Part shown: piece by piece, positions 11,571 through 55,448 of the stretch
How positions within the stretch are numbered: the first letter of the stretch is position 1
How the letters are laid out: each line of letters opens with the position of its first letter
From: a virus
Taxonomy: Duplodnaviria; Heunggongvirae; Uroviricota; Caudoviricetes
Length of the DNA stretch: 64,000 nucleotides
IMG/VR virus record: IMGVR_UViG_2541047860_000002
Direction: 5' to 3' (one strand)
The notes under the pieces: generated by a model
The model's input: only the letters and a program-made list of their open reading frames with translations
What the model was told of the DNA's origin: nothing
The model's database searches: none
Program-made: the position numbers and the translations under genes

Positions 11571-12733
11571 CCACTATTACCAAAGAGCGACTGCTGGCAA
11601 TCAAGCAGTGGCGCGAAACATACGGACCTGGTAGCAACGTTGTACTGCCAGCAGAAGAAGCGGAAGAACTGGCACGGATTGCTCTGGCAGCGCTGGAAGC
11701 TGAACCTGTTCTGTATCAGTCCTGCACTCGCCCCACTTGGAATAGCGGTGTTCCGTGGACGGAATGGAAAGAACGTAGTCGTGAGGGCTACGAAAACGAT
11801 TTGCGCTTTACAGACACGCCTGACCATGCCGGTTGGATAAACAAATGCCGAAAACAATATACCACTCCGCCAGTTCCGGTAATGCAGGCTGATGTCGCGC
11901 AAGCAATTGAAAACCTCAAGCAGAAGTTAGTGGAATGCAATCGCTATAACTACTGCGCAGATGCCGTTAAAGGTGTTGAGGATGCCAGCCGCGTCTTGGC
12001 ACTCCAAAATCAAAATATGTCAGCGCCGATAACGCCGGAGGCTATTGAAAACGCAATTGAATACATCCGCAGTATCGCTTTTCACATCAATGAAGACGAT
12101 TACCACGGCAAACATATTGCGTATTTCATGCGACAAGCATTGGCCTGGCTGGAAGGGCATTCATGCAGCAACGATAGACTGGGTAAAGCCGATAATCAAC
12201 CAGTACGCGGCAACCAGGCTGCCGAATCCAATCGCGGTAATGAGTGGACCGGCAATCCTGATATTGATAACGCCATCATCATGCTCGATCGCATAGATAC
12301 TCTGGAAAATTGCGATGATGACCGTATTGAGGCTGTTAAGGCCGTTTTGCGTAGACTGGCTGGCAACTATCCGGATATTCCGGATAGTTCGGTGCCAGCG
12401 CCAGGAAAGGGCGTCACCGGTGAACGTATCCGAATTAAGCCGCATGTTTATCGCGAACTGGTTAACCGTCTCCACGATACAGCGATCAAGTGTGCTGGCA
12501 CCCAGCAATTACGAGAAAGAATTAGCCGTGTTTTAGGCGACGTTATTACGCCAGATCATCATAAACAAGCCGAGAAAAGTGGCTTGGAAAGGTGTCACCT
12601 TGAGGCGGCATTAAACATTAAGCCGGGGCATACACTTGGCATTATTGATGCACTATTGGTTCATAAGATGGCCAGGGCTTTATTGCCGCTGGTGGCTGAA
12701 AAGCATGAGGTGGACCATGCCAACGAAAGCTGA
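11567..12733 (+). CDS. hypothetical protein
   Basis: 388 aa; C-terminal YRELVN.L.D.AI.C.GT.QLR.R module shared with the ORF at 5206-5829. Confidence 0.5.
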   Translation: MTTITKERLLAIKQWRETYGPGSNVVLPAEEAEELARIALAALEAEPVLYQSCTRPTWNSGVPWTEWKERSREGYENDLRFTDTPDHAGWINKCRKQYTTPPVPVMQADVAQAIENLKQKLVECNRYNYCADAVKGVEDASRVLALQNQNMSAPITPEAIENAIEYIRSIAFHINEDDYHGKHIAYFMRQALAWLEGHSCSNDRLGKADNQPVRGNQAAESNRGNEWTGNPDIDNAIIMLDRIDTLENCDDDRIEAVKAVLRRLAGNYPDIPDSSVPAPGKGVTGERIRIKPHVYRELVNRLHDTAIKCAGTQQLRERISRVLGDVITPDHHKQAEKSGLERCHLEAALNIKPGHTLGIIDALLVHKMARALLPLVAEKHEVDHANES

Positions 12734-13001
12734 ATTACAGGTGCGCGTAGATGAGCTTGAAAAAGAGAACGCGAGCCTCAAAAAAATGCTGTCGCGGGCG
12801 GAAAGGGAATTATCAGGCAAATTATTGCCAGAAGAACTGCCACCAGCAGATATACCTGATCGAGTGTCCTGGTGGATGAAGTATTTCCGTGCACCGTGGG
12901 AGGCGTTTTGGTGCTACCACCATCGCAGATGGTGTGATGAACTTGATAGCAGTTTTCCCTACTTTGCGGAAGGGAACACCTGCCCTCAATGCAGGGGATA
13001 G
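12717..13001 (+). CDS. hypothetical coiled-coil protein
   Basis: Internal ATG of track ORF 12636-13001. Confidence 0.35.
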   Translation: MPTKAELQVRVDELEKENASLKKMLSRAERELSGKLLPEELPPADIPDRVSWWMKYFRAPWEAFWCYHHRRWCDELDSSFPYFAEGNTCPQCRG

Positions 13002-13336
13002 CATTTGACGAAATCGATCACCCTATCCTGAACTTCAGAAAGAAGGTCTTTTTCACGCGCCAGGACGTCAGGATATTGACGTTCTGGCCTTACCAGATGC
13101 CGGAGCTTCCCATTAAGCAGAATGGCCTCAGAAAACACTTTTACGCTGTGCTTTATCCCCTCTGTTTCACTTTTCAGCGTCAAAATAAAGCGCAATTGCT
13201 TATTAGCCTGATTCAGATTCAATACACGAATTTGCAGTTCGTCTATGCTGTTTCGCAATGGGATTGATGCCACCACACTGGTGCAGTCTCTGATTGTCTG
13301 AATTGAACGGCTAACATTGAGAACGTTGTTGTGCAT
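12986..13336 (-). CDS. hypothetical protein
   Basis: 116-aa AT-rich ORF divergent from the humD-like gene. Confidence 0.4.
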   Translation of the reverse strand: MHNNVLNVSRSIQTIRDCTSVVASIPLRNSIDELQIRVLNLNQANKQLRFILTLKSETEGIKHSVKVFSEAILLNGKLRHLVRPERQYPDVLAREKDLLSEVQDRVIDFVKCYPLH

Positions 13337-13488
13337 GTGCCCGATCCACTAACTCCTGGAGGTTTCTTGTGTCAGATCGAAATATAGCAGCTAAAAGCCA
13401 GGAAGAGCGAGACAAGGTGAACGTAGACCTTGCCGCCAGCGGTGTTGCTTACAAACCCCGCTTTCACAAACTATGCCTTTTCAATGTA

Positions 13489-13508
13489 TACTGTATGAAT
13501 AAACAGTA
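13489..13508. promoter_or_regulatory. LexA box (SOS operator)
   Basis: TACTGTATGAATAAACAGTA matches CTGT-N8-ACAG; about 20 bp upstream of the humD-like start. Confidence 0.7.
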
Positions 13509-13526
13509 TCATTGAGGTAAAACGCT

Positions 13527-13916
13527 ATGGGCTTCCCTTCTCCTGCGGCGGATTATGTTGAAAGCCGAATTTCTCTTGATCAACAACTAATCAGGCATCC
13601 ATCAGCAACCTACTTCATGCGGGCAGCTGATAGCCATCACCGTGAGGGAATATTGCAGGGTGCTTTGCTGGTGGTTGATTCTTCGCTTACTCCAGTTGAT
13701 GGTTCGCTGCTTGTGTGCGCTATGGAGGGTGAATATCGCATAAAGAGATACAGGAAGTATCCGCGCCAGCACCTGGAGGATTTAAGCACCGGGAAGAAAG
13801 AGGCGTTACCAGTAGATGACGATGGATACACGGGCAGTAATGCTGTTTTTGGTGTGATCACCCACATTATCAATGACGCCAGGGGCGGTGAATTTGATGA
13901 TAGTCCTGCTATATGA
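13527..13916 (+). CDS. humD: UmuD-prime homologue (HumD-like)
   Basis: 129 aa starting directly at the GFPSPAADYVE motif, i.e. the post-cleavage form of UmuD; Ser and Lys dyad positions look conserved; LexA box upstream; no umuC-like gene follows. Confidence 0.75.
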   Translation: MGFPSPAADYVESRISLDQQLIRHPSATYFMRAADSHHREGILQGALLVVDSSLTPVDGSLLVCAMEGEYRIKRYRKYPRQHLEDLSTGKKEALPVDDDGYTGSNAVFGVITHIINDARGGEFDDSPAI

Positions 13917-14050
13917 TTTGTTTTCAGAGAAACCATAGAGAGGCATGACTGGATCTATATCGCCCTGGCCATTTAAATGATTCCTCCCATTAGACGCGGT
14001 TACTCACTTGAAGATAAGATGAGGTTATAATTCTCTTTTTAGGTACGCGA

Positions 14051-14473
14051 ATGAGTTCGTCTGCTTTTGTCACTGTTGTCACTGGAGTAAGCGTTTTTGT
14101 CCTAGGTCGACTCATCATCAAGGGGGTTGAGTCTTACATTTCATTCAAGGAACAGTTGGGGGAAATATCGCATCTGTTATTGTCTAACCAAGCAAAGCTA
14201 TCGAATCCCCGCTCTGACTTAAAACAAGAAATCATCCATGATTTGAAAGATGCGGCAGCACAGTTACGGGTGAAGTACGAACTATTACCTTTCTATATCA
14301 AAATGTTACACATCGGTTTTCGCCTTGTTCCATCAGAAACTGAAATTCGTAAAGCGGCGCAAGAATTGAATCTGATAGCCTCGATACATGACGGTAAAAC
14401 CGGAGAGCTGCCATATGAGCACATAGCCAAGATTGGATTACTGCTCAGAATTCCAACCACTTATTCTGCTTAA
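14051..14473 (+). CDS. hypothetical membrane-anchored protein
   Basis: 140 aa with a single N-terminal hydrophobic helix; AT-rich. Confidence 0.45.
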   Translation: MSSSAFVTVVTGVSVFVLGRLIIKGVESYISFKEQLGEISHLLLSNQAKLSNPRSDLKQEIIHDLKDAAAQLRVKYELLPFYIKMLHIGFRLVPSETEIRKAAQELNLIASIHDGKTGELPYEHIAKIGLLLRIPTTYSA

Positions 14474-14575
14474 TCCCAGCAATTGCAAGACTGCATCTCG
14501 AGGATTTAAGGCACCAAGAAGTGGTATTCAGCATCATTAAAACCTATAATTGCGTACACATAACGAGCACACGAG

Positions 14576-14803
14576 GTGTTTATGCAATCCATTAACTTCC
14601 GTACCGCGCGCGGCAACCTTTCTGAAGTGCTCAACAATGTTGAAGCCGGGGAAGAGGTTGAAATCACCCGCAGAGGCCGTGAGCCAGCAGTAATTGTTAG
14701 CAAGGCTACTTTTGAAGCCTACAAAAAAGCGGCGCTGGATGCCGAATTTGCATCCCTGTTTGACACCCTGGACTCCACCAACAAGGAACTGGTTAACCGA
14801 TAA
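14576..14803 (+). CDS. phd: Phd antitoxin (Phd/YefM family)
   Basis: Sequence matches P1 Phd as I recall it; true start probably the ATG at 14582; stop overlaps the doc start. Confidence 0.9.
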
Positions 14804-15183
14804 TGAGGCATATATCACCGGAAGAACTTATTGCGCTTCATGATGCGAATATAAGCCGCTACGGTGGCCTGCCGGGAATGTCAGATCCGGGTAGGGCAGA
14901 GGCCATTATCGGGAGAGTTCAGGCCAGAGTTGCCTACGAAGAGATCAGCGACCTTTTCGAAGTCTCCGCCACCTACCTGGTGGCTACAGCGAGAGGGCAT
15001 ATATTCAATGATGCCAATAAGCGTACCGCGCTAAACAGTGCGCTGCTATTTCTACGCCGTAACGGGGTGCAGGTATTTGATTCACCTGAACTGGCAGACC
15101 TTACTGTAGGCGCTGCGACTGGCGAGATATCTGTATCTTCTGTCGCCGACACGTTACGTAGATTGTATGGTTCTGCGGAGTAG
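14803..15183 (+). CDS. doc: Doc toxin (Fic-fold kinase)
   Basis: 126 aa matching P1 Doc as I recall it; immediately downstream of phd. Confidence 0.9.
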
Positions 15184-15187
15184 ATTA

Positions 15188-15385
15188 ATGGCACGTAAAT
15201 ACAACAAGTTGTCCCGTGAAGCGTTAAAGATGCTTCTTGATGGCGTGAGTCGCCGCGAGGTAAAGCAATACCTGGTTGGTAAGCAAATTGGTGCCAGGAC
15301 CGCTATTGCTGTGTTATGCCGTCAGGAAATGGTTGTGCTTAAACAGAGAATGCTTGGTAGCAGACAAAGTGCTTCCAGTATTTGA
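15188..15385 (+). CDS. small hypothetical protein
   Basis: Internal ATG of track ORF 15167-15385; basic 65-aa product. Confidence 0.3.
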   Translation: MARKYNKLSREALKMLLDGVSRREVKQYLVGKQIGARTAIAVLCRQEMVVLKQRMLGSRQSASSI

Positions 15386-15390
15386 AAAGA

Positions 15391-15417
15391 AGCCCGCCAT
15401 ACCAAGCGGGCTTTTTG
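15391..15417. terminator. bidirectional rho-independent terminator
   Basis: AGCCCGC-CATACCAA-GCGGGCT hairpin followed by a T-run, between convergent genes. Confidence 0.6.
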
Positions 15418-16194
15418 TTATTTCACCTCTTCTGCCGCTGTATCATTGGACTGTTCTTCTTTGGCCCGTTCTGCAATCGCCGCACGGCATTTCGCCCTGG
15501 CTGTAGCGATTGCTTCTGCTCGCACATCGTCTGGAATCGTTGACGTGATATACATATCCAGTTCTTCGGCACGGAATACTGTTTGGTCCAGATATTCGCG
15601 TAGCATCCAAGTAAATTCGAAATCACACGCGATAATCTCTGCGCTACCTTCTGCACCATTTGGGAAATGAATAAATGCCTGTTTAGCCAAACCGATAACA
15701 CGACATGCGGTTGCCAAAACAGCGACAACCAGGTTTACATTTTCACACGCTACGGGCTGATTAACGCCGGAGATTACTCCATTTAACTGTCGGTTATATG
15801 GAAGGTAGTTTGAGATGCGTTCTACGCGCCATGTGCCAGTCAGGCTGCCATTCTTAAAGATAATTGGTGTAACGGATAGCCCAAGCTCGCGTATAAGTCG
15901 TTGCGCTATAGCAGGATCATTAAACATGTCTAATGCTACACATTCGAAAGACTGTGCAAGGGTAAACAGTTCTTCCAGAGAGTAGTCTTTGCCCCTGGCG
16001 GTGATGTAACGATGAACGCCGCTTTCTGCATCGCTCCATATAGCTACGCCATGCTCTTCATTCAGCTCTTCATTAAAGCCGAGATACGTCATGATAGTAC
16101 GTTCAATCGTGTCAAACGGCAGTGACATGTCGGCGTTAACAGCCACCAGCAGGCCATTACGCAAGCGGTATTGAATTGCTTTAGTATTTTCCAC
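15418..16194 (-). CDS. hypothetical protein
   Basis: 258 aa, no recognised motif; first gene-distal member of the minus-strand operon ending at 18201. Confidence 0.5.
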   Translation of the reverse strand: MENTKAIQYRLRNGLLVAVNADMSLPFDTIERTIMTYLGFNEELNEEHGVAIWSDAESGVHRYITARGKDYSLEELFTLAQSFECVALDMFNDPAIAQRLIRELGLSVTPIIFKNGSLTGTWRVERISNYLPYNRQLNGVISGVNQPVACENVNLVVAVLATACRVIGLAKQAFIHFPNGAEGSAEIIACDFEFTWMLREYLDQTVFRAEELDMYITSTIPDDVRAEAIATARAKCRAAIAERAKEEQSNDTAAEEVK

Positions 16195-32263: not shown

Positions 32264-35200
32264 TTAAGCCGCATCGGCGATTATTTTACGCAGTTCATCT
32301 ACCGAGTAACGCGTAGATACCATCCACGCCGGACGGTCAAAGTCCACATCCGCGACAGGATTCACTTCAAAATTCCAGAAACGCCCGCCAATCTTCTTAA
32401 TCGCGTCTTTGGCGTTCCGTATTGTCGAGGAACCTGGTTGGTCGGCAATGAGATAAACCGCGCCAACGTCCTCGCTGACGCTCCACCAGCGCCCGCGAAC
32501 ACGCGCCTTAGCGCGAATAGGCTTATCATTAACCACAATGATATAGTCATCATTTGCCGCTTCATCAGCTCTGGCTTCAGCCACTGCCGCCTGCTCTTCT
32601 CTTTTGCTTTCAGCCTGCTCAAGCCTTTCCGCGATCTCTGATTCAGTGGCCCCGCCGTTTTTCAGCGATACATAGTCCTGCCACGTTGCCGATTTGAGCG
32701 TATCCGGCAACTCATTCACATAGTCGCCATCTTTCAACTCACGGGCGCGGCGGGTAGCCATTTCTACCAGGCGATTAACAGAAACAGCATCAGCAAAATC
32801 GTCCTTACTAATGTGTTTTTCATCAAATGCATTGATGACAGCCCCCACCTTAATCCACTGTGCTGCCGGTGATTCCAGGGGGTTATCAGCCTGGACAATG
32901 GCGAGTTTCGCTCCATCTACCCCATTATTCGCCAACTGTTCCAGCGCCGCCCATCCATCTGCATCACTGAGTGATTTATATTGCTCAAACAATGCATCGC
33001 GCCAGGCCACCAGCGCAGAACGTGTTTTTTCGATCTTCGCCTTAATTTTCGCGATCTTGACCTGATTAAACATCCGTTCAATATCATCGATATTGCTAAA
33101 GGCTTTCATCCTGCCCTGGAATAAACGGTATGCCAGCACGGTCCTCCAGAATGATTCCAGACCTTCTCCGGACGGTTTACGGAACAAGCTAAGAATATCT
33201 TCAGAAGTGACTTTATTAAGCGAACGACCTGACAGACCACGCCCAGCCATCCAGTTTTCGAACTCCTTGGCAACATCATCCATCGTTGCCTGTGCGCCCC
33301 ATGCCTGCATTCCCTGGATGTAATCATACCCATACAATGCCTGGAGGAATCCCTCTCCGTCCACGATATTCAGCGGGTTATCACTGGCTTGTATTTTTGC
33401 CACTTCACGCTTCAGCGCCTCGTCGTTGCCATCAGGATATATCCATCGTTCAGGTGCTATATCCGATGCTCGCCCGATTTTTTGGCCTATCACGCCATCA
33501 TAGGTCGATGACAGCGCGATCTGCCCATCATCTGTGCGATAGGCCCAGTATTTAATAGCTGATCCACCGCCCCATGCATTACCAGGTTTACCAGCAATAA
33601 CATTCATTACCCCATTGCGAATAGCATCATAGAACTGATCGCGAGTAAGTATTGTTGATAGCTGGTGGCACTGAACACCACGCGCAGCCGTTGCGCGCGA
33701 TTCAGCAACCCCCTCTTCAAAAGTTACCGCTTCAATCACAGAGTCAAACGGCAATGTAACGATTGACCCCGGTGATCGAGCGTAACGACTTGCTCTATCC
33801 AGCCAGGCGATACGACAGATGTATTGTGCTTTTTCACCGTCAATTTTTTCCACCCGGACAATCGCTGTTGTTTCGCGATCATCAATGACTGCACGGTAAT
33901 AACTACCTTTATGCAACAGGATATTCTTGTCAGTGCGCATATATTCCTGTGGGTTCTGAATAACATCGATACTGATATCCAGCACACCAGACTTAATAGC
34001 GCGCTCCACATCACCACGAGAGCGTTTCATTATGGTATCCGCGTCTTTTGCCCTGGTGATCGCAAACCGCAGCACCCGCGCACGTTTTCTGTAGCTACTC
34101 AACTGCTCAAGCGCGTATTTTTGCCCATTCCTGTTCGTACCCGCTTTTATCAGGTCGTCAAGATTGCGCTGGTAATACTCTATCTGTTCCATCGCGCTTT
34201 TCAGTTCTGTCTCCATCATGCCGATATCTTTTCCGGCGGCGTTTGCCGCTTTCAGGTAGATATCGAGAGCATTGTTGGCCTCGCGCTGTGCTTTCAGTTT
34301 CAGACGTTCTTCACGCTCTTGCGCCTGGCGAGCCATGATTGCGCGGCGTTCTTCCGGGTTTGCCGCCAGCATAATGGCGCGTTCATCAGCATCATCCACA
34401 TCACCATTGGCGATCTCTGACATGTCGGAGGTCATCACCATCTTGATCCAGTCTTTCTTACGTTTCAGCGTATCCAGACGGAAGTCGTCGAATGTGCCTT
34501 TGCCACAATAGTAGTGAACATTGACCTTCTCTTGCGGTGAACCTACGCGCGCACCGCGCCCATTTCGTTGGTCGATACTGGCTGGTGTCCAGGGTAGTGT
34601 CAGGTGGTGGATATCGGTTGTCCCGATGTGCAGGTTAATACCTACTTCAGCCTTCTTGTTACAGATTATGATGCGCGTGCGACCTTCGTTATAGTCGGCG
34701 GCAATACCTTCCATGCCCTCAAGGCCAGCATCATTTTTAGCTGAGAGATAATCCTCATATTGGGCAAGTTTGCTGTAGTAGGTTTCCCATGCCCCTTCTT
34801 TGTATTCACCGTTTTTGTTTGGAGTAGGTTCGGTCGGCTTATTCACCTTCTTCAGCTTGATGCCGCCAGCCTGGCTAACTGTCGTCGCATTGATAATGCC
34901 AATCTCCTGCTCCGGCATTTGCAGTGCACTGGCGATAATACGGCGCAGCTTCTGGTGCTGGGCTTTTTCATCAATAAAGACGATCTGCTTACCGTTCTTC
35001 AGACCTTCACGAAGATTTTCGATCAGCGCGGCATACTTCGGCGGGATGGGGTGCGATACCTGCTGCATATCAATACCGGCAGCCGCAATGGCCTTCAGTA
35101 TTTCAGCTTCCAGTTCAATGCTGGCACGTATTTCAACATGCGTCGGATGTTCACTAAAAGCGGTCTTCACTACCTTGCTGGTACGCGTACTGACCAGCCC

Positions 35201-38200
35201 GCCAGCGCCGTCTTCCTCGGCCTCATCAACATCATCTGCCACTTTACCACCAGCTACTTTTGGCAAGGCATCAGCAATAGCTTTTACCTGGTCTGCAAGC
35301 TCAACGGGGAACTGGAATGTAATCGCACTGGCATACAGATCCGGGTCTATAGCAACCTTGTCCATGTCACGGATGATGGAGAAGATGAAATCATCCGGTT
35401 TGTCGTTAGTGATATGCCCGTTTTCATCGACTGTCAGCTCATCATTGCGACTTAACTCCTGAGCACGCTTACGAAGTTCTTCATAAGCAGACTCCTGCTC
35501 CCCTGTCATCGGGATCTGCAAGGTGTTCTCGATGATGTCGGGAATTTTAACCGTCGCTCCGACATCTGCGGCAGTCTTCAGAGTGGTCCAACGATGGAAA
35601 ATACCACGCAGGCCATCAAGGTTCTGGAAGCCCACCAGCCCCTGCTTCTCTTCCACTTCCCCGGAAATTTTCTGGACCTGAACTGTGGCTGTTTTGCCAA
35701 ACACACGAACGAAATCATCAGGCGTAATGATGCCCATGCGCATCCACTCTTCCTGCGGAATGACAGTAGACAGCATGTTGAAGGCATCAATCGGACTGTT
35801 CACCAGCGGAGTTGCCGTCAGCATGACTACACCACGTCCGTTGTTGCGTTTCATCATGTACGCAGCTTTTACAGCCATGTCGCGGGCCATCTTGGATACT
35901 GCCGGGTTAGGCAAATATGCCAGTTGTCCCGCTTCACGCCCGGCATTAAAGGAGTTGCGGTAGTTATGCCCCTCGTCGGCAATCACGCTATCGAAGTTCA
36001 TATCCTCAAAGTACGGGATATTCTGCTTCTTCGTTGTACCGGTATTCGCGGCCTGATCCTTAATCTTGTTCTTCTTCTGTGCATCACGGTGTTTGCCAGA
36101 CGCCAGGTCAAGACGCCCCATTTCCACAGCATTAAAGACAGCTTGCTGTGAGTTCTCCTCGATGGTTTTTTCTCGTAGCGGGATAGACGCGAATTGTTCT
36201 TTTGTCATGATGACCGTTCGCCAATTTGACGACGGGATCATGTTCATGCGCTGAACGATAACGGCGCTGGCGGACTCTTTCACAACATTTCTGGTAAGAG
36301 GCTGCCCGTTACTGTCGAGGCGTGGTTCGCCATTTTCATCAAGCACCGGCGCGGTCAGAATATTTCCGCTGTCATCACGAACTTCATCCAAACCGATAAA
36401 CATCATATTGGCGAAGGCATCAGCACTGTAGAAACTCTGTGCCTCGTGATACCAGTTCTGATAAACCGCCTTCGGAACAACAATACACGTGCGTTTAGTG
36501 CGACCTGTTTCGAAGTTATACGCCTCAAGCGCAAGCGCGGTCGTGGTTTTACCCAGCCCGGTACCAAATCCCATGATGCCGCGCCCATCTTCTGACAAGC
36601 GACGAACTTCTTCATTTTGATAAGTCAGAGGAATGCGCTTTCCACTAATCCCTTCCAGGCCAAGCGGTGCGTTAGAGTGCGTGAACGGAATGAAGCCATT
36701 GAATGCGTCGTTATAGTCACGGGCTATCTGATCCGCCTGCGGGTGGGTGCGTAACCAGTCGTTAAAGCTAACTTCCAGTTGAGCAATTTTATCCAGGTAC
36801 TCGTTAGCGTTCTGCCCACGCGGTTTAACACCGTTCAGGTAGTTTTCTAACTGGTTCAGGAAGCCGTCTTTATTGTTGGCCTTCTTGAACTCATTCCCGT
36901 TTTTGCCGTTTACGGTTCGTAGCTGATAGCCGGTAAATACCCCGTCCTTACCTTCGTAATCGTCCGGAGATACCAGAATGCCATCGACGACCTTCAGATC
37001 AGGTTCAGTGTACTTAAACTCGTCATAGCCCTGCTCTGCCAGGAACTCTTTTATCAAGCGGCGATCCAGCCAGCGGGCATTCAGATTAACGGTGACTTTA
37101 TTTAGTGGCGTGAAAATGCGTTTCTCTTCGATTTTCGCCAACTGACGCTCAAAGTTCGCTTTCTGCTCACCTGTTGACGCATCACGCCAGCCCACCAGCA
37201 ATGCTGTTTTGGTTGCAATATCGCCGCTGGTGGCGCGGTCCATCGGCAGCAGGCAGCCATACCCATCAATAGCGATATCATCAAATTTCGCTAGGTATTC
37301 AAGGGCCGCGTCGTCGTCCTCTGGCAATTCACCAGCAAACGCCTCACGAAAGTCGCCCAGCGTTATAGGATTAAGGGCTACATCACTGAAAAGATGTGCT
37401 ATCACTTGTTCAGGACGTGTAAAGTCAATACCGGCAGCACCATCCGTTACATCAAGTCGCCCTGCCAGAAGGTCAGAAGTGGAACCATCCTGTTTCACAT
37501 TGCCAGTGAACGTCATCCAGTTTTTAGCGCCAGCTTCAGCAAGCCCATTCAGCTTAATCGCGTGCGGTGGTCCATACTTCGCAACTTCTGCTGCCGCCAG
37601 GCGGGATGCATCTGCCAGTTTGTCATCAACGTTCACCCCCAGGTTACGCAAATCAAGTGCCTTGTTGATCAACTGCCCTATCAGCGCACCGCGCATAACG
37701 CGCTCTCTGTCTTTTTCTCGCTGCTTGCCAGCAAAGCGAATCATTGCTGCCACTTCATCACTGACAACCGATGGATAGTCGGACGCGATCGCCGATATCT
37801 GGTCCCATGACAAAGCCAGAATCCCGTTTGTTGACTGGAACGCGATCTGCAGATCGCCAAACGTCGAAACACCATATCGACTTACATCAAGCGCGGAGGA
37901 TTTGGTTGTCGTGTCCTTAACCCATTTCAGGCCATCAAACTCATGCCAGATACCGCCTACAAGGCGTTTATCGCCCACTTTCGCGCCCTGCCATGCCTGA
38001 GTAGTTACGCCGAGCAAATCCCAATTGATGCGACTATCAAAGCGACGAGATAGCGCGGTTTTCATCGACTCATTGGATACACGGCCGTCTTTTTTCACCA
38101 CTAGGGTATTGCGGAAGCTGGTACGTTCCATGTCGCCGTAAACAAACCGCTTCCCTTCGGTTGTAAACCATTTTCCTTTGAGGAAGGTATCCCAAAGGAC

Positions 38201-39100
38201 GTTTGCCGATTTGAGCGTGGCATCATCCGTGTCGGGGATCATCTCCAGGAAGGTTTCCGGGTGTTTACGCAATACCCATACGTCCACCACGGTATCTGTA
38301 CCGGATTCGCTGAACGTACCAGAAGGCATACGATGTGCGGCCAAAAATTCCGCTTTACGGCTGACTTTATCGCGCAATTTTTTGTATTTCGTACCATCGG
38401 TCATGCCATTCGGCACCACCAATACGATAAGCCCACCAGGCTTAACCTTGTCGATCGTGCGCAACACAAAATAATTGCCAACGTTCTTCTCGTTTGCATA
38501 TGCCGGATCAAGCCCGGCAACGCCGGAACGCCCTTCACCAAACGGTACGTTACCAACAGCGTGGTCATACATTGCATCTTTCGCCGCCAGCGCCTCAAAC
38601 GCCCCGATATTCACATCGTCTTCCGGGTGCAAAAGCTGGTTTATTCGACCAGAAATCGGAGACAGTTCGGCGCTGGTCATTATCATGCCCTGCCGTTTTG
38701 TCTCCTGGAAAATACCTGTGCCCGCTGATGGTTCCAGTACGTGCCCGCCATCAATACCGTAGTCAGCAAACAGATCCCATATACCTTCAGCCATAAACTG
38801 TGGCGTGTAGTATTCGTATTGGCTGCCCTCACCATCTGTCAGGCCGCCTTCACCGGTATACCCGGCAAGAATCTGACGTTGTTCGTCAGTTAATTTCGCC
38901 CCATCGAAGCCGGGCGGAAGGGAATTAAGAAGATTTACTGCGGCGTTGTTTGCTGCACGGCGTGTTTTCTGAATACTGACGCCATCGGCTTTCCTGACGC
39001 CAAAGGTCGCAACAGCACGTAATTTATGCAACCGACTAACAATTTCAATCAGTTCGCCTAAGCTGGAGGCTTCACTGATTGAATGAAGTAATTTGTCCAA
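32264..39100 (-). CDS. darB: DarB-like anti-restriction protein (N6-adenine methyltransferase plus DEAH helicase)
   Basis: 2278 aa; methyltransferase motifs (EPSAGTG, NVPFG), Walker A GFGTGLGKT, DEGH box; size and architecture match P1 DarB as recalled. Confidence 0.85.
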   Translation of the reverse strand: MDKLLHSISEASSLGELIEIVSRLHKLRAVATFGVRKADGVSIQKTRRAANNAAVNLLNSLPPGFDGAKLTDEQRQILAGYTGEGGLTDGEGSQYEYYTPQFMAEGIWDLFADYGIDGGHVLEPSAGTGIFQETKRQGMIMTSAELSPISGRINQLLHPEDDVNIGAFEALAAKDAMYDHAVGNVPFGEGRSGVAGLDPAYANEKNVGNYFVLRTIDKVKPGGLIVLVVPNGMTDGTKYKKLRDKVSRKAEFLAAHRMPSGTFSESGTDTVVDVWVLRKHPETFLEMIPDTDDATLKSANVLWDTFLKGKWFTTEGKRFVYGDMERTSFRNTLVVKKDGRVSNESMKTALSRRFDSRINWDLLGVTTQAWQGAKVGDKRLVGGIWHEFDGLKWVKDTTTKSSALDVSRYGVSTFGDLQIAFQSTNGILALSWDQISAIASDYPSVVSDEVAAMIRFAGKQREKDRERVMRGALIGQLINKALDLRNLGVNVDDKLADASRLAAAEVAKYGPPHAIKLNGLAEAGAKNWMTFTGNVKQDGSTSDLLAGRLDVTDGAAGIDFTRPEQVIAHLFSDVALNPITLGDFREAFAGELPEDDDAALEYLAKFDDIAIDGYGCLLPMDRATSGDIATKTALLVGWRDASTGEQKANFERQLAKIEEKRIFTPLNKVTVNLNARWLDRRLIKEFLAEQGYDEFKYTEPDLKVVDGILVSPDDYEGKDGVFTGYQLRTVNGKNGNEFKKANNKDGFLNQLENYLNGVKPRGQNANEYLDKIAQLEVSFNDWLRTHPQADQIARDYNDAFNGFIPFTHSNAPLGLEGISGKRIPLTYQNEEVRRLSEDGRGIMGFGTGLGKTTTALALEAYNFETGRTKRTCIVVPKAVYQNWYHEAQSFYSADAFANMMFIGLDEVRDDSGNILTAPVLDENGEPRLDSNGQPLTRNVVKESASAVIVQRMNMIPSSNWRTVIMTKEQFASIPLREKTIEENSQQAVFNAVEMGRLDLASGKHRDAQKKNKIKDQAANTGTTKKQNIPYFEDMNFDSVIADEGHNYRNSFNAGREAGQLAYLPNPAVSKMARDMAVKAAYMMKRNNGRGVVMLTATPLVNSPIDAFNMLSTVIPQEEWMRMGIITPDDFVRVFGKTATVQVQKISGEVEEKQGLVGFQNLDGLRGIFHRWTTLKTAADVGATVKIPDIIENTLQIPMTGEQESAYEELRKRAQELSRNDELTVDENGHITNDKPDDFIFSIIRDMDKVAIDPDLYASAITFQFPVELADQVKAIADALPKVAGGKVADDVDEAEEDGAGGLVSTRTSKVVKTAFSEHPTHVEIRASIELEAEILKAIAAAGIDMQQVSHPIPPKYAALIENLREGLKNGKQIVFIDEKAQHQKLRRIIASALQMPEQEIGIINATTVSQAGGIKLKKVNKPTEPTPNKNGEYKEGAWETYYSKLAQYEDYLSAKNDAGLEGMEGIAADYNEGRTRIIICNKKAEVGINLHIGTTDIHHLTLPWTPASIDQRNGRGARVGSPQEKVNVHYYCGKGTFDDFRLDTLKRKKDWIKMVMTSDMSEIANGDVDDADERAIMLAANPEERRAIMARQAQEREERLKLKAQREANNALDIYLKAANAAGKDIGMMETELKSAMEQIEYYQRNLDDLIKAGTNRNGQKYALEQLSSYRKRARVLRFAITRAKDADTIMKRSRGDVERAIKSGVLDISIDVIQNPQEYMRTDKNILLHKGSYYRAVIDDRETTAIVRVEKIDGEKAQYICRIAWLDRASRYARSPGSIVTLPFDSVIEAVTFEEGVAESRATAARGVQCHQLSTILTRDQFYDAIRNGVMNVIAGKPGNAWGGGSAIKYWAYRTDDGQIALSSTYDGVIGQKIGRASDIAPERWIYPDGNDEALKREVAKIQASDNPLNIVDGEGFLQALYGYDYIQGMQAWGAQATMDDVAKEFENWMAGRGLSGRSLNKVTSEDILSLFRKPSGEGLESFWRTVLAYRLFQGRMKAFSNIDDIERMFNQVKIAKIKAKIEKTRSALVAWRDALFEQYKSLSDADGWAALEQLANNGVDGAKLAIVQADNPLESPAAQWIKVGAVINAFDEKHISKDDFADAVSVNRLVEMATRRARELKDGDYVNELPDTLKSATWQDYVSLKNGGATESEIAERLEQAESKREEQAAVAEARADEAANDDYIIVVNDKPIRAKARVRGRWWSVSEDVGAVYLIADQPGSSTIRNAKDAIKKIGGRFWNFEVNPVADVDFDRPAWMVSTRYSVDELRKIIADAA

Positions 39101-46713: not shown

Positions 46714-47082
46714 TTACCCGGCATAACCGTTAGCTTTCACCCAGCTTATGGTCTGCTCTTTAGCCTGCTCCAACGTAAGGAACTCGCCAACATAGTTTGA
46801 GATCCCACGCAGCGCATCAATAAATTCCATTTGTGTGGACTTTGTGAACACACCGCCCAGGAAGTCAGTCACTATCTTAGGGACTTCATCTACAACAGGA
46901 TCAGCCTGTTGTTGCGGTTCCGCTGCCGGTTGCGCGGCAGTCCCCAGGCCCAATTTCAGCATCACATCAACAATCTGCTTACCAATGGTGACGCGTTGCA
47001 ATACTGGCGCAGTTTTCTGCGCCTGCATTAGATCTGATAGCTCTTTACCTAATTTCAGGCGGTCTAAAACAGAGATGGTCAT
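46714..47082 (-). CDS. hypothetical protein
   Basis: 122 aa, translationally coupled to the upstream 660-aa gene. Confidence 0.4.
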   Translation of the reverse strand: MTISVLDRLKLGKELSDLMQAQKTAPVLQRVTIGKQIVDVMLKLGLGTAAQPAAEPQQQADPVVDEVPKIVTDFLGGVFTKSTQMEFIDALRGISNYVGEFLTLEQAKEQTISWVKANGYAG

Positions 47083-49064
47083 TAAACACCTCCCTGCTGA
47101 ATTTCAGCCAGAATATTGATCAGGTAGTCAACTGCTGCACCCACAGTGGCTTCGTTCTCGTCGTATCGACCTGCACTGATTAGAGCGTTTGCTGCTTCCT
47201 GCACATGATCAAGTTCAGCACTGATGACCGTCAGATCGCGGGATGTAAACTGCTCCGGCACGGATTTCAGGTACTCCAGCGCTTTATCTGCTTCCTGATC
47301 AGCTTCACTTGCTGATTCACCCGCTTCTTCTGGCTCCGACTCCTGTTCTGGTGCTGGTTGTGGTTGTGGTTGTGGTTGTGGTTGTGATTCTGGCTCAACC
47401 ACATGCTCTGTTTTTACTTCGCTTGAATGATTTTGAAGGGCGTTATACACGTCCATAATGAAAAGGTTCTCCCCATCACTAAGTGGATACGCCACGTTTG
47501 GAAACGCTTTGCGGAAAAGAATTTTCACTTGCGCCTTGAATGTTTTCAGGTCACTGCCAAACAGGTCCACATAGCCATCAATATGTTTCGACATGCTGGA
47601 CGCAACCAATTGGCCTGCAAAATCTTTCAGCTCATCTTCATCAGGAAGATAAAGCAACTCGTACTGGCTGACTTCTTCATCTGTCAGTTTACGGTCATAC
47701 GTAATGATACCGTGACGAGCATATTCGTAATACTGATCAGCCTGGTCAGGACGATCAAGCACGGCTTTATTTCCATCCGGAACAGCACCAACACCAGCTG
47801 GGCGAGATTGAAGTGCATAGTGGTATTTACCTACATCTTGGCTCTCTGGTTGTAATACTGGGTTCGTTTCGGGGTCTGTCTGTGGTGGCTCGGAGTCTTC
47901 CAACTGGCCTGGTAACACATCAACTTTATATTTATTTGCGTTATGCTCTCGGTAGGCTTTAAGTAATTTGGTTGCAGCATCTGCCAAACTGCCTCCTTTG
48001 ACAGCACTGGCATCAATACTGAATTTACCTTCAGGTGCTACTATCGTAACGAAATTGTCACTGCCGGACGTGACATAATTAACTTCAGCGCCATTATCCA
48101 GCACTGTTTTTCCGTCAATGGCAAGATTATGTTTTACATGTCGCAGCTGGTCACTAAACGCTCGTTCTTTCGTTTTTTCACCTTTAGCAGACAACAATTT
48201 ATCGCGTTTTGCTTGTAATTCCGCGTTGATGGCTTTCTGGGCATCAAGTTTTTTTTGCATCTCCGTAAGAGCAGCACGCTTTTCAGTCAGCCCACGTTGC
48301 GCAACGTCCACCTGATCAATCATTATTGACCGTTCTTCTGCCAGTTTATCTGCTTCATTGAGATAACTCTCAATATCTGCCTTCATTTTGTCCTGGCGCT
48401 CTTTTGCTTTCTTAAATTTTTCGCTGTTACGCTCAATCAAATTAGATAGCGCCTGACATACTTGGCTTAAAGAAACATCTCTCCCACCAATCGGGGCGAC
48501 AACGTGAGTTACGTTACGCTTATTAAGTAAAAACTGAAATGCAACAAGCTCGTCGTTACTCTTTATTTTTGCCCCATCAGCTGTTGGAGAGTGGAAAATT
48601 ATGCTTGTGCTCTGCCCGTCAGTAAGCGGTATCTGCGCGGTCAAAACAGGGATATTAGCTACCCGACGTACACGACCGATAATTGCACCACCAATACAAT
48701 TACGTCCATTTTCATCGGTCCCAGCTTCATCAGTCCCTGCCATAATATTCGTACCATTCAGGCCACGATTCAGCGCACGGACGAAAGCTCGCATTGTTTG
48801 AGCTAACCGAATTCTGGTTGTAGTTATGGACTCAAACATAGCTTCGTCAGACACAACCAGAATTTCATTGCCCATATAGGCAAGCTCAATATCTTCTAAG
48901 GTCGCCGCCTCAAAAATCAGGTCATCTTCGCTTAATTCTTCTGAAGACCAGCGACTTGGCATATAGCCGGGGATCGTATCAGCAAAAGTAGACTGAATAT
49001 TAATTCGTAAAGGATTGTTAATCATGCTCATCCTCCAGGCGCGCGATTTCTTCTTTAAGAGCAC
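47082..49064 (-). CDS. large virion-associated coiled-coil protein (possibly DarA-like)
   Basis: 660 aa with central coiled coil and a (QP)5 repeat; follows the holin-like pair as darA does in P1; assignment positional. Confidence 0.45.
   Translation of the reverse strand: MLLKKKSRAWRMSMINNPLRINIQSTFADTIPGYMPSRWSSEELSEDDLIFEAATLEDIELAYMGNEILVVSDEAMFESITTTRIRLAQTMRAFVRALNRGLNGTNIMAGTDEAGTDENGRNCIGGAIIGRVRRVANIPVLTAQIPLTDGQSTSIIFHSPTADGAKIKSNDELVAFQFLLNKRNVTHVVAPIGGRDVSLSQVCQALSNLIERNSEKFKKAKERQDKMKADIESYLNEADKLAEERSIMIDQVDVAQRGLTEKRAALTEMQKKLDAQKAINAELQAKRDKLLSAKGEKTKERAFSDQLRHVKHNLAIDGKTVLDNGAEVNYVTSGSDNFVTIVAPEGKFSIDASAVKGGSLADAATKLLKAYREHNANKYKVDVLPGQLEDSEPPQTDPETNPVLQPESQDVGKYHYALQSRPAGVGAVPDGNKAVLDRPDQADQYYEYARHGIITYDRKLTDEEVSQYELLYLPDEDELKDFAGQLVASSMSKHIDGYVDLFGSDLKTFKAQVKILFRKAFPNVAYPLSDGENLFIMDVYNALQNHSSEVKTEHVVEPESQPQPQPQPQPAPEQESEPEEAGESASEADQEADKALEYLKSVPEQFTSRDLTVISAELDHVQEAANALISAGRYDENEATVGAAVDYLINILAEIQQGGV
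47356..47385. repeat. hexanucleotide tandem repeat (TGGTTG)x5
   Basis: Five perfect copies encoding (QP)5 on the minus strand within the 660-aa gene. Confidence 0.9.
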
Positions 49065-51114: not shown

Positions 51115-52650
51115 TTGAGCACGGCTAACACATGGAGTGCGCGCCAGACTTTCAACGGCGGGATCACCGGGGCGCTGACAGGGAACGCCGATACCGCGAC
51201 GAAATTGAAAACAGCCAGAAACATTAATGGCGTCAGGTTCGATGGTTCGGCTGACATTAATATCAATACTCTGGTATCACGCGGTCGAGTAACTGCTCTG
51301 GCGTCGAATGCGCAGGGGACATCCGGGATTCAGCTGTATGAGGCATACAACAATGGCTACCCTTCCCCCTATGGCAATGTGCTTCACCTTAAAGGTGCCA
51401 CCGCTGCTGGCGAAGGTGAGTTATTCATTGGCTGGAGTGGCACGAGCGGTGACCATGCGCCCGTACATATCCGTTCGCGGCGGGATACTGATTCTGCCAA
51501 CTGGTCTGAATGGGCGCAGGTCTATACGTCAAAAGATTCCGTTCCCGGCGTTAATACCAAAGGGAATCAGGACACCTCTGGTAATGCGGCTACAGCGACC
51601 AAATTGCAGACAGCACGTACTATTAACGGTGTCTCGTTTGATGGTTCTAAAAACATTGAGCTAACAGCGGAAGATTTAAATCTTGAGCAAACCGTAGAAT
51701 TAGCCGCTGGATCATTGCAGAAAAACCAGAACGGCGCAGATATTCCAAACAAAGATAAATTTACGCAAACAATAGGTGCTTGCCGCTCTTTTCATGGTGC
51801 TATTAGCACAGGTGCAGGAAACTGGACGACGGCACAATTGATTGAATGGCTGGATTCTCAAGGGGCATTCAATCACCCATACTGGATGTGCAAATGTTCA
51901 TGGTCATACGGCAATAATAAAATTATTACCGATACTGGCTGTGGAACTATTCATCTTGCAGGTTGCGTTATTGAGGTTATGGGTAATAAAGGTGCCATGA
52001 CTATCCGTGTAACCACCCCGAGCACTTCCAGAGGTGGCGGAACTACTAATGCACAATTTACTTATATAAACCATGGCGCAGATTACGCACCAGGCTGGCG
52101 GCGTGACTACAGTACCAAAAATCAGCAGCCTGCATTTGCTTTAGGGCAGACAGGAAGCACTGTTGGAAATGACAAAGCTGTTGGATGGAACTCAATTAGT
52201 GGCGTTTATAATGCGACTATTGGTGGAGCATCAACATTGATTCTTCACTTTAATATGAATGCGGGGAGTTGCCCTGCTGTACAGTTCCGTGTGAATTACA
52301 GGAACGGTGGTATTTTTTATCGTTCAGCGCGTGATGGTTACGGATTCGAAGCTGACTGGTCAGAATTTTACACCACAACACGCAAGCCATCAGCAGGAGA
52401 TGTTGGTGCATATACCAAAGCGGAGGCGGACTCCCGTTATGTACGTGATATCCGACTTGGTGGCGCATCATCATACAAACCAGCAAATAATGGCACAACA
52501 TGGACACATCAGGCTCCATCTGGTTGCGCATATACCGGAATAATTGTTCAGGATACAGGCTCAAACTCTGCCGATAATATTGGTGGTGTTTATTACAGAC
52601 CAATTCAAAAAAATATTAATGGCACATGGTATAACGTATCGAGTATTTGA
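51115..52650 (+). CDS. tail fibre variable C-terminal segment (Sv-like), no constant part attached
   Basis: 511 aa from a TTG; frame is open back through the cix site to a stop at about 51034 with no ATG. Confidence 0.65.
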   Translation: MSTANTWSARQTFNGGITGALTGNADTATKLKTARNINGVRFDGSADININTLVSRGRVTALASNAQGTSGIQLYEAYNNGYPSPYGNVLHLKGATAAGEGELFIGWSGTSGDHAPVHIRSRRDTDSANWSEWAQVYTSKDSVPGVNTKGNQDTSGNAATATKLQTARTINGVSFDGSKNIELTAEDLNLEQTVELAAGSLQKNQNGADIPNKDKFTQTIGACRSFHGAISTGAGNWTTAQLIEWLDSQGAFNHPYWMCKCSWSYGNNKIITDTGCGTIHLAGCVIEVMGNKGAMTIRVTTPSTSRGGGTTNAQFTYINHGADYAPGWRRDYSTKNQQPAFALGQTGSTVGNDKAVGWNSISGVYNATIGGASTLILHFNMNAGSCPAVQFRVNYRNGGIFYRSARDGYGFEADWSEFYTTTRKPSAGDVGAYTKAEADSRYVRDIRLGGASSYKPANNGTTWTHQAPSGCAYTGIIVQDTGSNSADNIGGVYYRPIQKNINGTWYNVSSI

Positions 52651-53186
52651 TTATGATGCATTTAAAAAACATAAAGCCAGGCAATCCAAAAACCGAAGAG
52701 CAATATCTTTTAACTAAAAACTCAGGCGTCGTCTGGTTATGGACCGAAGATGGTAAGAACTGGTATGAGGAACAAAAGAACTTTCAGGAAGACACCATAA
52801 AGATTGCATATGATGAAAATAATGTTATATGCGACGTGCAAAAGGATGTGACTGCAATTTGCCCGGAGGGAAAAAGTGTCGTTGAGGTTCCTGATATTAC
52901 AGCAAATCGCCGGGCTGATATTTCGGGTAAATGGATGTTCAAAGATGGCGTAGTGATAAAGCGAACTTATACCGAGGAAGAGCAGAGGCAACAAGCGGAA
53001 AATGAAAAGCAAAGCCTGCTACAGCTCGTCAGGGATAAAACACAGCTATGGGACTCACAGTTACGGCTGGGTATCATTTCCGACGAGAATAAACAAAAAT
53101 TAACCGAGTGGATGCTCTATGCGCAGAAGGTCGAATCCACAGACACCTCCAGCCTGCCAGTAACATTTCCCGAACAACCAGAATGA
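52647..53186 (+). CDS. tail fibre assembly protein
   Basis: 179 aa; paralogue of the convergent ORF 53215-53742. Confidence 0.75.
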   Translation: MIMMHLKNIKPGNPKTEEQYLLTKNSGVVWLWTEDGKNWYEEQKNFQEDTIKIAYDENNVICDVQKDVTAICPEGKSVVEVPDITANRRADISGKWMFKDGVVIKRTYTEEEQRQQAENEKQSLLQLVRDKTQLWDSQLRLGIISDENKQKLTEWMLYAQKVESTDTSSLPVTFPEQPE

Positions 53187-53214
53187 GAGAAGGCCCGATA
53201 TCGGGCCTTAATTT

Positions 53215-53742: not shown

Positions 53743-53743
53743 A

Positions 53744-54771: not shown

Positions 54772-54825
54772 TGGCCGTTTCTGACCTGCATGGCATGATT
54801 TACGCTTTTGGACGGGAGATTCAGC

Positions 54826-55441: not shown

Positions 55442-55448
55442 TGTTAAA

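Follow-up and report, generated by a model that had tools for sequence, protein, structure and literature searches.

The window, by which we mean the whole 64,000-nucleotide stretch of DNA that was analyzed, carries a block of genes in a single orientation, consisting of a truncated hot gene, humD preceded by a promoter-like site and a LexA box, an orf109-type gene encoding a small membrane protein, the phd-doc pair, and a pdcA homolog followed by a terminator-like hairpin (Table 1). All of the elements that an earlier note on this DNA had named were found where it had placed them. Taken jointly with the assignment of HumD and the reading of the inserted gene that are given below, the block very probably makes up the accessory and maintenance region of a plasmid prophage that is D6-like and belongs to the P1 family.

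Table 1. Genes and sequence features of the humD-orf109-phd-doc locus (window coordinates)
Feature	Coordinates	Strand	Description
Truncated hot (DNA polymerase III theta homolog)	13369..13515	+	Pfam DNA_pol3_theta, residues 5-33 only
Promoter-like site for humD	13463..13492	+	TTCACA-18-TATACT, 10/12; -10 at 13487-13492
LexA (SOS) box TACTGTATGAATAAACAGTA	13489..13508	+	Overlaps the -10 and the likely transcription start
humD	13527..13916	+	129 aa; UmuD'-like, lacking the 24-residue N-terminal segment that UmuD loses by cleavage
636-bp insertion relative to P1, P7, RCS47, and SJ46	13909..14544	+	Boundaries approximate
Promoter-like motif pair of the inserted gene	13991..14020	+	TAGACG, 18 nt, TAAGAT
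orf109-type gene	14051..14473	+	140 aa, single-pass membrane protein, PHROG 7512
Pphd -10 TATAAT and Phd/Doc operator region	14545..14575	+	-10 at 14545-14550; by alignment with P1 and RCS47
phd antitoxin	14582..14803	+	73 aa; Pfam PhdYeFM_antitox (PF02604), 3.1e-13
doc toxin	14803..15183	+	126 aa; Pfam Fic (PF02661), 4.7e-09
pdcA homolog	15188..15385	+	PHROG 3345, 1.6e-42; last gene of the co-directional block
Intrinsic-terminator-like hairpin with T run	15387..15416	+	11-bp stem, 6 GC pairs, then TTTTT

Positions 13200 to 15500 share 99.1% identity with phage D6 over 100% of their length, with an identical gene order, and approximately 12 E. coli and Salmonella plasmids of 92 kb share 99.9% identity over 12 kb. 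The humD-orf109-phd-doc arrangement is annotated in D6 (orf108-orf109-orf110-orf111), where the membrane-protein gene is listed as hypothetical orf109, and it is also present in at least 32 D6-like plasmids. The author of the earlier note suspected that this arrangement differs from that of P1 and had suggested a comparison with P1 and D6; that comparison identified the open reading frame (ORF) as an insertion that is absent from P1 and present in D6, but the arrangement itself is not new. The locus has been sequenced before and nothing in the block is new. Every match returned by an Rfam scan of positions 12500 to 16000 was under the gathering score.

By its profile and structure matches, the window HumD is a member of the HumD family, scoring 213.8 bits against the NCBIfam HumD equivalog NF051876 (cutoff, 120), to which it aligned over positions 1 to 128 of 129, with further matches to PHROG 811 (8.5e-55), Pfam Peptidase_S24 (5.7e-09), and the UmuD' structure 1umu (E value, 3e-23). 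It is 96, 98, and 44% identical to P1 HumD, D6 HumD, and UmuD, respectively. The claim that the gene starts at the post-cleavage boundary of UmuD was borne out by alignment, as M1-G2 falls at the Cys24/Gly25 cleavage site with residue 2 opposite Gly25 and no pro-segment, and the sequence GFPSPAADYVE, with which the protein begins once the methionine is removed, matches UmuD' exactly over its first 11 residues. The same alignment to UmuD and P1 HumD retained the context of the catalytic dyad, with S36 and K73 as the equivalents of UmuD Ser60 and Lys97. No Y-family polymerase domain was detected in the 17 window ORFs of at least 330 amino acids, and no umuC is annotated between positions 44000 and 72500 of D6, the part of that phage outside the window, in agreement with the proposed absence of a umuC partner. 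An SOS-boxed, pre-truncated UmuD' homolog without umuC matches the published description of P1 HumD. The P1 record states that HumD "functionally complements E. coli UmuD'," and P1 HumD is described as a substitute for UmuD' in SOS mutagenesis (McLenigan et al. 1999, as cited in PMC4713147). Because the element lacks umuC, the window HumD would pair with host UmuC, and because it has no 24-residue pro-segment, RecA*-dependent cleavage would be unnecessary; HumD and host UmuC could in this way form an active Pol V-like enzyme while skipping the slow RecA*-mediated cleavage of UmuD. We infer such Pol V activation from the P1 gene and its published complementation of UmuD'.

The sequence TACTGTATGAATAAACAGTA upstream of humD matches the LexA consensus TACTGTATATATATACAGTA at 17 of 20 positions and was the only site in the 64 kb with three or fewer mismatches (0 expected from 100 shuffles), so the near-consensus LexA box proposed earlier holds; the pattern CTGT-N8-ACAG likewise occurs once in the 64 kb, at humD. 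The promoter-like site was the sole sigma-70-like site found in positions 13300 to 15500 by a generic promoter scan and is a consensus match only; the equivalent hexamers of P1, read off the alignment, are poorer (TGCACC and TGTACT). The overlap of the box with the -10 hexamer TATACT of this predicted promoter is a promoter-occluding placement. The LexA site annotated in P1 has the same position and distance from humD and shares 18 of 20 bases with that of the window, the other two differing. A LexA site is annotated in the records of both P1 and P7, humD has been termed LexA regulated, and humD-phd-doc is a cluster common to P1 and its P1-like subgroup 2 (PMC9603915). We infer SOS/LexA control of the window humD from the nearly identical P1 gene; because the box covers the -10 and the start of the promoter, humD would be silent in a healthy lysogen and turned on by the SOS response. 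The hot gene upstream is truncated, and alignment with RCS47 and P1, in which Hot is 83 to 87 amino acids long, shows a deletion between two TACAAA repeats. The product of the truncated gene comprises approximately 30 Hot residues and an 18-residue extension, for which the reading frame continues across the humD promoter and LexA box.

Megablast matches to P1-type phages stop at approximately position 13908 and restart at 14545. P1, P7, RCS47, and SJ46 have no ORF here and a humD-phd gap of approximately 72 nt, and among D6-like plasmids the insertion is missing from NZ_CP031917 and present in NZ_LR890273. The insertion has a GC content of 40 to 42%, compared with 49% for humD, 50.5% for phd, 52% for doc, and 48.6% for the window. 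No direct repeats or target-site duplication at its borders were found in positions 13850 to 14620. Positions 14505 to 14544 were also compared with the P1 humD-phd spacer, and their similarity (approximately 38% in the non-anchored part) was judged to be due to chance. The promoter-like motif of the inserted gene is weak by consensus (4/6 and 4/6, with an 18-nt spacer) and below the threshold of the generic scan; a perfect TATAAT at 14026 to 14031 has no usable -35. However weak, the elements TAGAC and ATA(A/G)GAT are invariant upstream of homologs in five otherwise unrelated contexts, namely, the window, a 47-kb phage-plasmid, an IncF plasmid, an IncX1 plasmid, and a Serratia phage-plasmid. 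At the level of BLAST, DNA homology to homologs elsewhere extends from the start codon (ATG) to the stop codon and not beyond. No terminator was found after the inserted ORF in positions 14474 to 14581, either by terminator scan or by folding.

The membrane-anchored ORF noted between humD and phd-doc is a real gene. Its product has one N-terminal hydrophobic segment (residues 5 to 23; mean Kyte-Doolittle score, 2.19), and residues 1 to 140 align with profile positions 1 to 141 of the 141 in PHROG 7512 (1.2e-77). A profile search returned 1,010 representatives of the family, in approximately 1,000 clusters at 50% identity, nearly all of them 135 to 155 amino acids long. Among 174 homologs, 98.9% have a single N-terminal hydrophobic segment, with 0.2 K/R residues before it and 2.2 after it. 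Compared with four homologs of 51 to 74% protein identity, dN/dS ranged from 0.09 to 0.53 and was mostly 0.1 to 0.3. The AF2 model is all-helical (pLDDT, 84.9), and the protein is predicted to have an N-terminal anchor with an N-out/C-in topology and a cytoplasmic C-terminal helical bundle. No match was found for the protein in Pfam, NCBIfam, or PADLOC (PADLOC-DB v2 defense models, no family at an E value of ≤1), and none was found in Pfam for 44 diverse homologs. A literature search by accession and PHROG identifier matched no paper.

Homologs were identified from Enterobacterales to Chromohalobacter and Acidobacteriota metagenome-assembled genomes, in lambdoid prophages, phage-plasmids, IncF and IncX plasmids, and chromosomal islets, as a solitary gene. 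In Atlantibacter lambdoid prophages the homolog lies alone in the nin region, antisense to the lytic operon, and the homolog of a Shewanella prophage is flanked by the early-left genes on one side and the repressor on the other. No partner gene recurred in the approximately 15 distinct contexts inspected, as the neighbors differ each time.

Lambdoid phage comparisons gave rise to the term moron, for an additional gene with expression of its own that separates two genes found side by side in relatives; a classical moron has its own terminator as well. On our reading, a low-GC cassette has been inserted between humD and phd, made up of the conserved promoter-like motif and a single gene whose product is a small inner-membrane protein, and this gene behaves as a moron, self-contained, moving horizontally, and expressed from the resident element. 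As to function, a tentative guess is that the orf109 protein shields the carrier cell or the element from newly arriving phages or plasmids, through exclusion or an abortive-infection-type mechanism. A fuller version, to which we give slightly less credence, is that the family is a widespread one of single-gene membrane-anchored effectors, with the protein carried by prophages, phage-plasmids, and conjugative plasmids as an exclusion or abortive-infection factor that is expressed during lysogeny and, here, raised further by transcription running on from the humD promoter under SOS.

An unlikely explanation is that the ORF works together with HumD as an SOS partner, is co-induced with it from the LexA-controlled promoter, and acts in the damage response, for example by restraining growth or division from the membrane, as other small SOS membrane proteins do, or by tethering or regulating HumD or Pol V. 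The ORF is co-directional with humD and starts 134 nt downstream, and SOS-induced read-through into it is likely because neither a terminator nor a stable hairpin separates the two (folding of 13910 to 14055 was not above that of shuffled sequences; z = +1.47). In addition, one IncX1 homolog is within 2.5 kb of the SOS toxin genes dinQ and dqlB. Yet in the non-P1/D6 loci examined, CTGT-N8-ACAG was found upstream of none of the homologs and no S24/UmuD-like gene adjoined them; the only other match to this pattern (L010/L011) lies approximately 5.8 kb downstream of a homolog. P1, RCS47, and some D6-like plasmids carry humD without the ORF, which moreover has its own conserved promoter-like motif. 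As homologs outside P1/D6-like loci have no upstream LexA box, the idea that orf109 is intrinsically an SOS gene was dropped.

Downstream, phd-doc corresponds almost without change to the addiction module of P1 and stabilizes the plasmid. Phd is 100% identical to the P1 and D6 proteins and Doc is 99 and 100% identical, respectively; the Fic motif of Doc, HIFNDANKR, fits HxFx(D/E)(A/G)N(K/G)R when read from the sequence, and the doc start codon overlaps the phd stop codon (TAATG). Pphd is annotated at the equivalent place in the P1 record, and the operator region of the window contains the -10 and both palindromic sites, which we take from the P1 literature to be Phd-binding sites. Set against the P1 sites, each has one T-to-C substitution; in the second site, the core is GTAC in P1 and GCAC in the window. 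The hairpin beyond pdcA (orf112 of D6, described in that record as "similar to P1 gene pdcA") was the first and only strong terminator found by terminator scan 3' of the humD promoter, and folding of positions 14460 to 14585 was not above that of shuffled sequences (z = +0.75). Because no terminator precedes the end of pdcA, transcription that starts at the humD promoter during the SOS response, or at the cassette promoter, probably continues into phd-doc-pdcA.

These features bear on a second alternative, less likely again, in which the ORF adds a third component to phd-doc or modifies the module, either regulating it from upstream or acting at the membrane to adjust the toxicity of Doc or the turnover of Phd. 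The ORF is immediately 5' of phd, the P1 sequence ahead of the Pphd -10 has given way to the insertion, and the two operator changes and the probable entry of transcription into phd-doc would fit such a role, as would the presence of some homologs near other toxin-antitoxin genes, RelE/ParE and HicAB. However, the nearly unchanged Phd and Doc already form a working two-gene system in P1, and homologs outside D6-like elements never adjoin phd-doc; the toxin-antitoxin genes found nearby are of unrelated families and their distances vary, as is expected in cargo regions. The weakest alternative, a chance or decaying frame in non-coding filler between humD and phd, could draw on the lack of a Pfam, NCBIfam, or PADLOC match, an annotation of "hypothetical" only, and a weak Shine-Dalgarno sequence (AGG), but it is effectively refuted by DNA homology restricted to the ORF, the 1,010 full-length representatives, and the dN/dS values, with the confident AF2 model also standing against it.

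As a discovery the locus carries little weight, since phd-doc and the pre-activated UmuD' that P1-family phages keep under SOS control are textbook material and the exact arrangement has already been deposited for phage D6 and dozens of plasmids. D6-like plasmid prophages are nevertheless common in E. coli and Salmonella of food-animal and patient origin, and their humD should shorten the route to error-prone Pol V activity under DNA-damaging antibiotics. The orf109 family is large and unnamed, consisting of small membrane proteins that travel alone on phages and plasmids, and the gene is a cheap candidate for phage-challenge or plasmid-exclusion screening.

Compared with E. coli UmuD and UmuD' (PDB 1umu, 1i4v, and 8gmt), HumD belongs to the same S24 fold family, with the Ser/Lys dyad in common, and differs in the absence of the N-terminal pro-segment, a 4-residue insertion, and a C-terminal tail of approximately 10 residues; unlike umuD, its gene is not in an operon with umuC. 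The P1 counterpart runs lxr-LexA box-humD-phd-doc-pdcA (NC_005856.1, 86837 to 88831) and, like the window element, has no umuC. P1 has a full-length hot and a divergent lxr upstream and no gene between humD and phd, whereas in the window lxr is absent, hot is truncated, and the 636-bp orf109 cassette has been added. Phage D6 orf107 to orf112 (NC_050154.1, 85294 to 87310) have the same order of truncated hot, LexA box, humD, orf109, phd, doc, and pdcA, with point differences only, such as those in HumD; from approximately 52.6 kb onward the window is P2-like and unlike D6. D6-like plasmid prophages such as CP057832.1 and pYU39_89 have the same genes in the same order, and several plasmids are 99.9% identical. 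The cassette departs from classical morons in that no terminator of its own was found, and from morons generally in that the orf109 family is also common on conjugative plasmids and on chromosomes without visible phage context. It resembles them in its presence or absence between adjacent conserved genes, its deviant GC content, and its own promoter-like motif, and in that members of the family are solitary and antisense in lambdoid prophages.

All features of the block between 13369 and 15416 lie on the + strand of the window, and the sequence bore out every detail of the earlier note's observation of an SOS-boxed humD, a 140-aa ORF, and phd-doc. Across the full 2.3 kb around humD-phd-doc the window shares 99.1% identity with Escherichia phage D6, and approximately 12 E. 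coli and Salmonella plasmids of 92 kb share 99.9% identity with the 12-kb stretch around the locus. The window's initial 9 kb are likewise D6-like; the locus is part of a D6-like, P1-family plasmid prophage.

Features of the humD-phd-doc locus and of other regions of the window
Feature	Coordinates	Strand	Remark
116-aa ORF	12986-13336	-	divergent from hot
Short hot-like ORF	13369-13515	+	truncated
LexA box	13489-13508	+	
humD	13527-13916	+	UmuD'-like
Palindrome	13969-13978		perfect, 10 bp
TAGAC	13991-13995		conserved upstream block
ATA(A/G)GAT	14014-14020		conserved upstream block
GGTTATAAT	14023-14031		position of marine GTTATAG
140-aa ORF	14051-14473	+	
Pphd -10	14545-14550		
Palindromes	14551-14575		presumed Phd/Doc operator
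phd	14582-14803	+	
doc	14803-15183	+	
pdcA homolog	15188-15385	+	
Terminator-like hairpin	15387-15416	+	single, strong
DarB-like ORF	32264-39100	-	2,278 aa
DarA homolog	47082-49064		
Tape measure	55950-58757		P2-family match
Sheath	59850-61034		P2-family match
gpD	61060-62301		P2-family match

The 129-aa HumD product scored 213.8 bits with the curated NCBI model for HumD equivalogs, above the cutoff of 120, matched PHROG 811 'UmuD-like' (8.5e-55), and was 96, 98, and 44% identical to P1 HumD, D6 HumD, and E. coli UmuD, respectively; the closest solved structures were those of UmuD' (1umu, 3.3e-23). Gly25 of UmuD follows the RecA*-stimulated cleavage site. Residue 2 of HumD aligned with Gly25 and the next ten residues were identical to those of UmuD', placing the start at the post-cleavage boundary as had been proposed. 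S36 and K73, the equivalents of Ser60 and Lys97, were invariant in all five aligned sequences; thus, the catalytic dyad context, whose loss had been raised as a possible objection, is kept. The reported lack of a umuC partner also held, as none of the 17 window ORFs of at least 330 aa encoded a Y-family polymerase domain, and no such polymerase is annotated in the D6 segment outside the window coverage. According to the P1 record, HumD 'functionally complements E. coli UmuD''; the primary paper on P1 HumD is McLenigan et al. 1999, cited in PMC4713147. By analogy with this experimentally studied, near-identical protein, and in line with the earlier note, SOS derepression of humD would provide host UmuC with preformed UmuD', so that the checkpoint of UmuD cleavage is skipped.

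The LexA box, TACTGTATGAATAAACAGTA, matched 17 of the 20 consensus positions, in keeping with its description as near-consensus, and was the only such site in 64 kb (0 in 100 shuffles) as well as the only CTGT-N8-ACAG. It overlaps the -10 of the sole sigma-70-like site found in a scan of 13300-15500, TTCACA-18-TATACT (10/12). In the alignment, the P1 hexamers over the box are TGCACC and TGTACT, whereas those of the window are nearer consensus. PMC9603915 describes humD as a LexA-regulated SOS gene, and the P1 record annotates a LexA site for lxr and humD. P1 possesses a full-length hot (87 aa), encoding a DNA polymerase III theta homolog, with a divergent lxr between hot and the LexA box, whereas in the P1-family phage RCS47 hot is 83 aa and lxr is absent. 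Alignment with both revealed that hot in the window is cut after approximately 30 native residues by a deletion bounded by two TACAAA repeats. The Pfam match covers theta residues 3 to 31 only, the truncated frame extends across the LexA box and the promoter of humD, and the hot-like ORF of D6 is still annotated 'DNA polymerase III theta subunit'. As hot is intact in the D6-like plasmid NZ_LR890273, which also carries an additional 116-aa ORF, humD, and orf109, the truncation is lineage specific. The window's own 116-aa ORF matched PHROG 2594 (unknown function; 1.2e-46) and is common to RCS47 and D6 (orf106); P1 has upfM-upfO on that side.

Phd and Doc were 100 and 99% identical to those of P1, with the Fic motif of Doc (HIFNDANKR), the phd stop/doc start overlap (TAATG), and the Pphd -10 retained. 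The two palindromes that we take to be the Phd/Doc operator, downstream of this -10, each differ from P1 and RCS47 by one T-to-C change (TTGTGTACACA to TTGCGTACACA and GAGTACAC to GAGCACAC in the alignment), which may alter Phd/Doc autorepression.

Megablast matches to the P1-family phages P1, P7, SJ46, and RCS47 stop near 13908 and begin again at 14545, and direct alignment showed that the P1-type humD-phd spacer is replaced by 636 bp. The insert has a GC content of 40 to 42%, compared with 49 to 52% in humD, phd, and doc. The insertion is polymorphic among D6-like plasmids; NZ_LR890273 has the ORF, and in NZ_CP031917 humD is followed directly by phd-doc. Using tblastn, the 140-aa protein was found in 346 plasmids: 32 were D6-like copies (at least 95% identity), 240 shared 60 to 80% identity and were mostly IncF plasmids and 47-kb phage-plasmids, and 74 fell below 60%, IncX1 and Serratia plasmids included. 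At the BLAST level, DNA similarity to homologs is confined to the region from ATG to stop codon, and pairwise dN/dS ranged from 0.09 to 0.53; the ORF is a genuine protein-coding gene.

Over its whole length the protein matched PHROG 7512, a family of unknown function (1.2e-77); Pfam, NCBIfam, and PADLOC gave no match, and none of 44 diverse homologs matched Pfam. An exhaustive profile search identified 1,010 cluster representatives at E ≤ 1e-3 (228 at E ≤ 1e-10), and PHROG 7512-type representatives were nearly all 135 to 155 aa with end-to-end alignments. Its sole hydrophobic segment spans residues 5 to 23 (mean Kyte-Doolittle, 2.19), and an N-terminal segment was present in 98.9% of 174 homologs, with a second in only 3%, supporting the earlier note's membrane-anchored ORF between humD and phd-doc. 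As K/R residues in these homologs averaged 0.2 before and 2.2 after the segment, the positive-inside rule predicts an uncleaved N-terminal anchor and a cytoplasmic C-terminal domain. The AlphaFold2 model, built from an 11-sequence alignment, was confident and all-helical (pLDDT, 84.9), with three to four shorter helices packed on a long helix (residues 3 to 45). T8, T11, G12, and G19 of the transmembrane helix were invariant and Q20 nearly so, suggesting, speculatively, helix-helix contacts in the membrane.

The upstream flanks of five enterobacterial copies are not alignable by BLAST; multiple alignment revealed two invariant blocks, TAGAC and ATA(A/G)GAT, separated by 17 to 18 nt and approximately 30 nt before the ATG, plausibly a weak sigma-70 promoter travelling with the gene. 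No terminator was found in 13917-14050 or 14474-14581, neither folded better than its own shuffles, and Rfam found nothing at the locus. Given intergenic regions of this kind, the simplest architecture would be three nested promoters (PhumD under LexA, that of the inserted gene, and Pphd) running to one terminator after pdcA. A perfect palindrome, CATTTAAATG, precedes the conserved TAGACG motif by 13 nt, and at the corresponding site the IncF, IncX1, and Serratia homologs carry another type of inverted repeat (CTGGAC-N14-GTCCAG); these could be operators. The marine homolog loci L008, L009, L010, L020, and L021 share GTTATAG, which precedes the gene start by approximately 16 to 22 nt and lies immediately 5' of the ribosome-binding site; apart from this, their flanks are unrelated. 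This motif and GGTTATAAT at the corresponding position in the window could represent an additional -10 element closer to the gene, or a regulatory site.

No recurrent neighbor gene was identified across the homolog contexts inspected, nor was a LexA box found upstream of homologs outside P1/D6-like loci. In a 47-kb phage-plasmid an HTH gene and a RelE/ParE pair are close to the gene; it lies between sitABCD and sopA in an IncF plasmid, is surrounded by hypothetical genes not far from dinQ and dqlB in an IncX1 plasmid, and falls between tail genes and rdgC-dam in a Serratia phage-plasmid. In a Shewanella prophage it sits between early-left genes and a cI-like repressor, adjoining a PIN protein, and in Atlantibacter lambdoid prophages it is a solitary antisense gene of the nin region, flanked by replication genes and ninF/ninG. 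Marine gammaproteobacteria carry it at various sites in the chromosome, in one case adjacent to a partial integrase gene, and further homologs were found in Chromohalobacter and Acidobacteriota MAGs.

The gene behaves as a moron, being an indel between genes adjacent in relatives, with deviant GC, its own promoter-like motif, and a solitary antisense position in lambdoid prophages; a terminator of its own is the one classical moron feature that it lacks. The leading guess, a tentative one prompted by the mobile, lysogeny-side contexts, is that the protein excludes or defends against incoming phages or plasmids, although the lack of a PADLOC match and the many homologs in unremarkable chromosomal contexts speak against it. 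A role as SOS partner of HumD is disfavored, as the association with HumD is absent elsewhere in the family and P1 HumD works without the ORF. Modification of phd-doc is likewise disfavored, since that association is also confined to this setting and the identical Phd and near-identical Doc of P1 function without it.

The window is not D6-like throughout, as D6 homology ends at approximately 53789. From approximately 52616, P2-family (P88-like) prophage tail genes match at 93 to 97% (window ~52600-63100), and this stretch includes a DNA invertase, tail fiber, tape measure, sheath, gpD, and ogr. The junction falls within the shared tail fiber/invertase region and may reflect either a true hybrid or cointegrate or a chimera introduced by assembly. 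A DarB-like ORF with N6-methylase, SNF2/ResIII helicase, and Helicase_C domains and a DarA homolog are the anti-restriction module of P1-family phages.

The humD-phd-doc cluster is common to P1 and its P1-like subgroup 2, and hot-lxr-humD has been assigned to a low-GC region that is highly variable among P1-like elements (PMC9603915). The sole unexplained element is the 140-aa ORF, and the question belongs to its family (PHROG 7512), not specifically to this window. The earlier note rightly suspected the inserted membrane ORF to be absent from P1, but comparison with D6 revealed the arrangement to be annotated already. D6 shares this gene content and order (orf107 to orf112), with the 140-aa ORF entered as 'orf109, hypothetical protein'; the arrangement is the form that the P1 humD-phd-doc block takes in D6, already known from databases.
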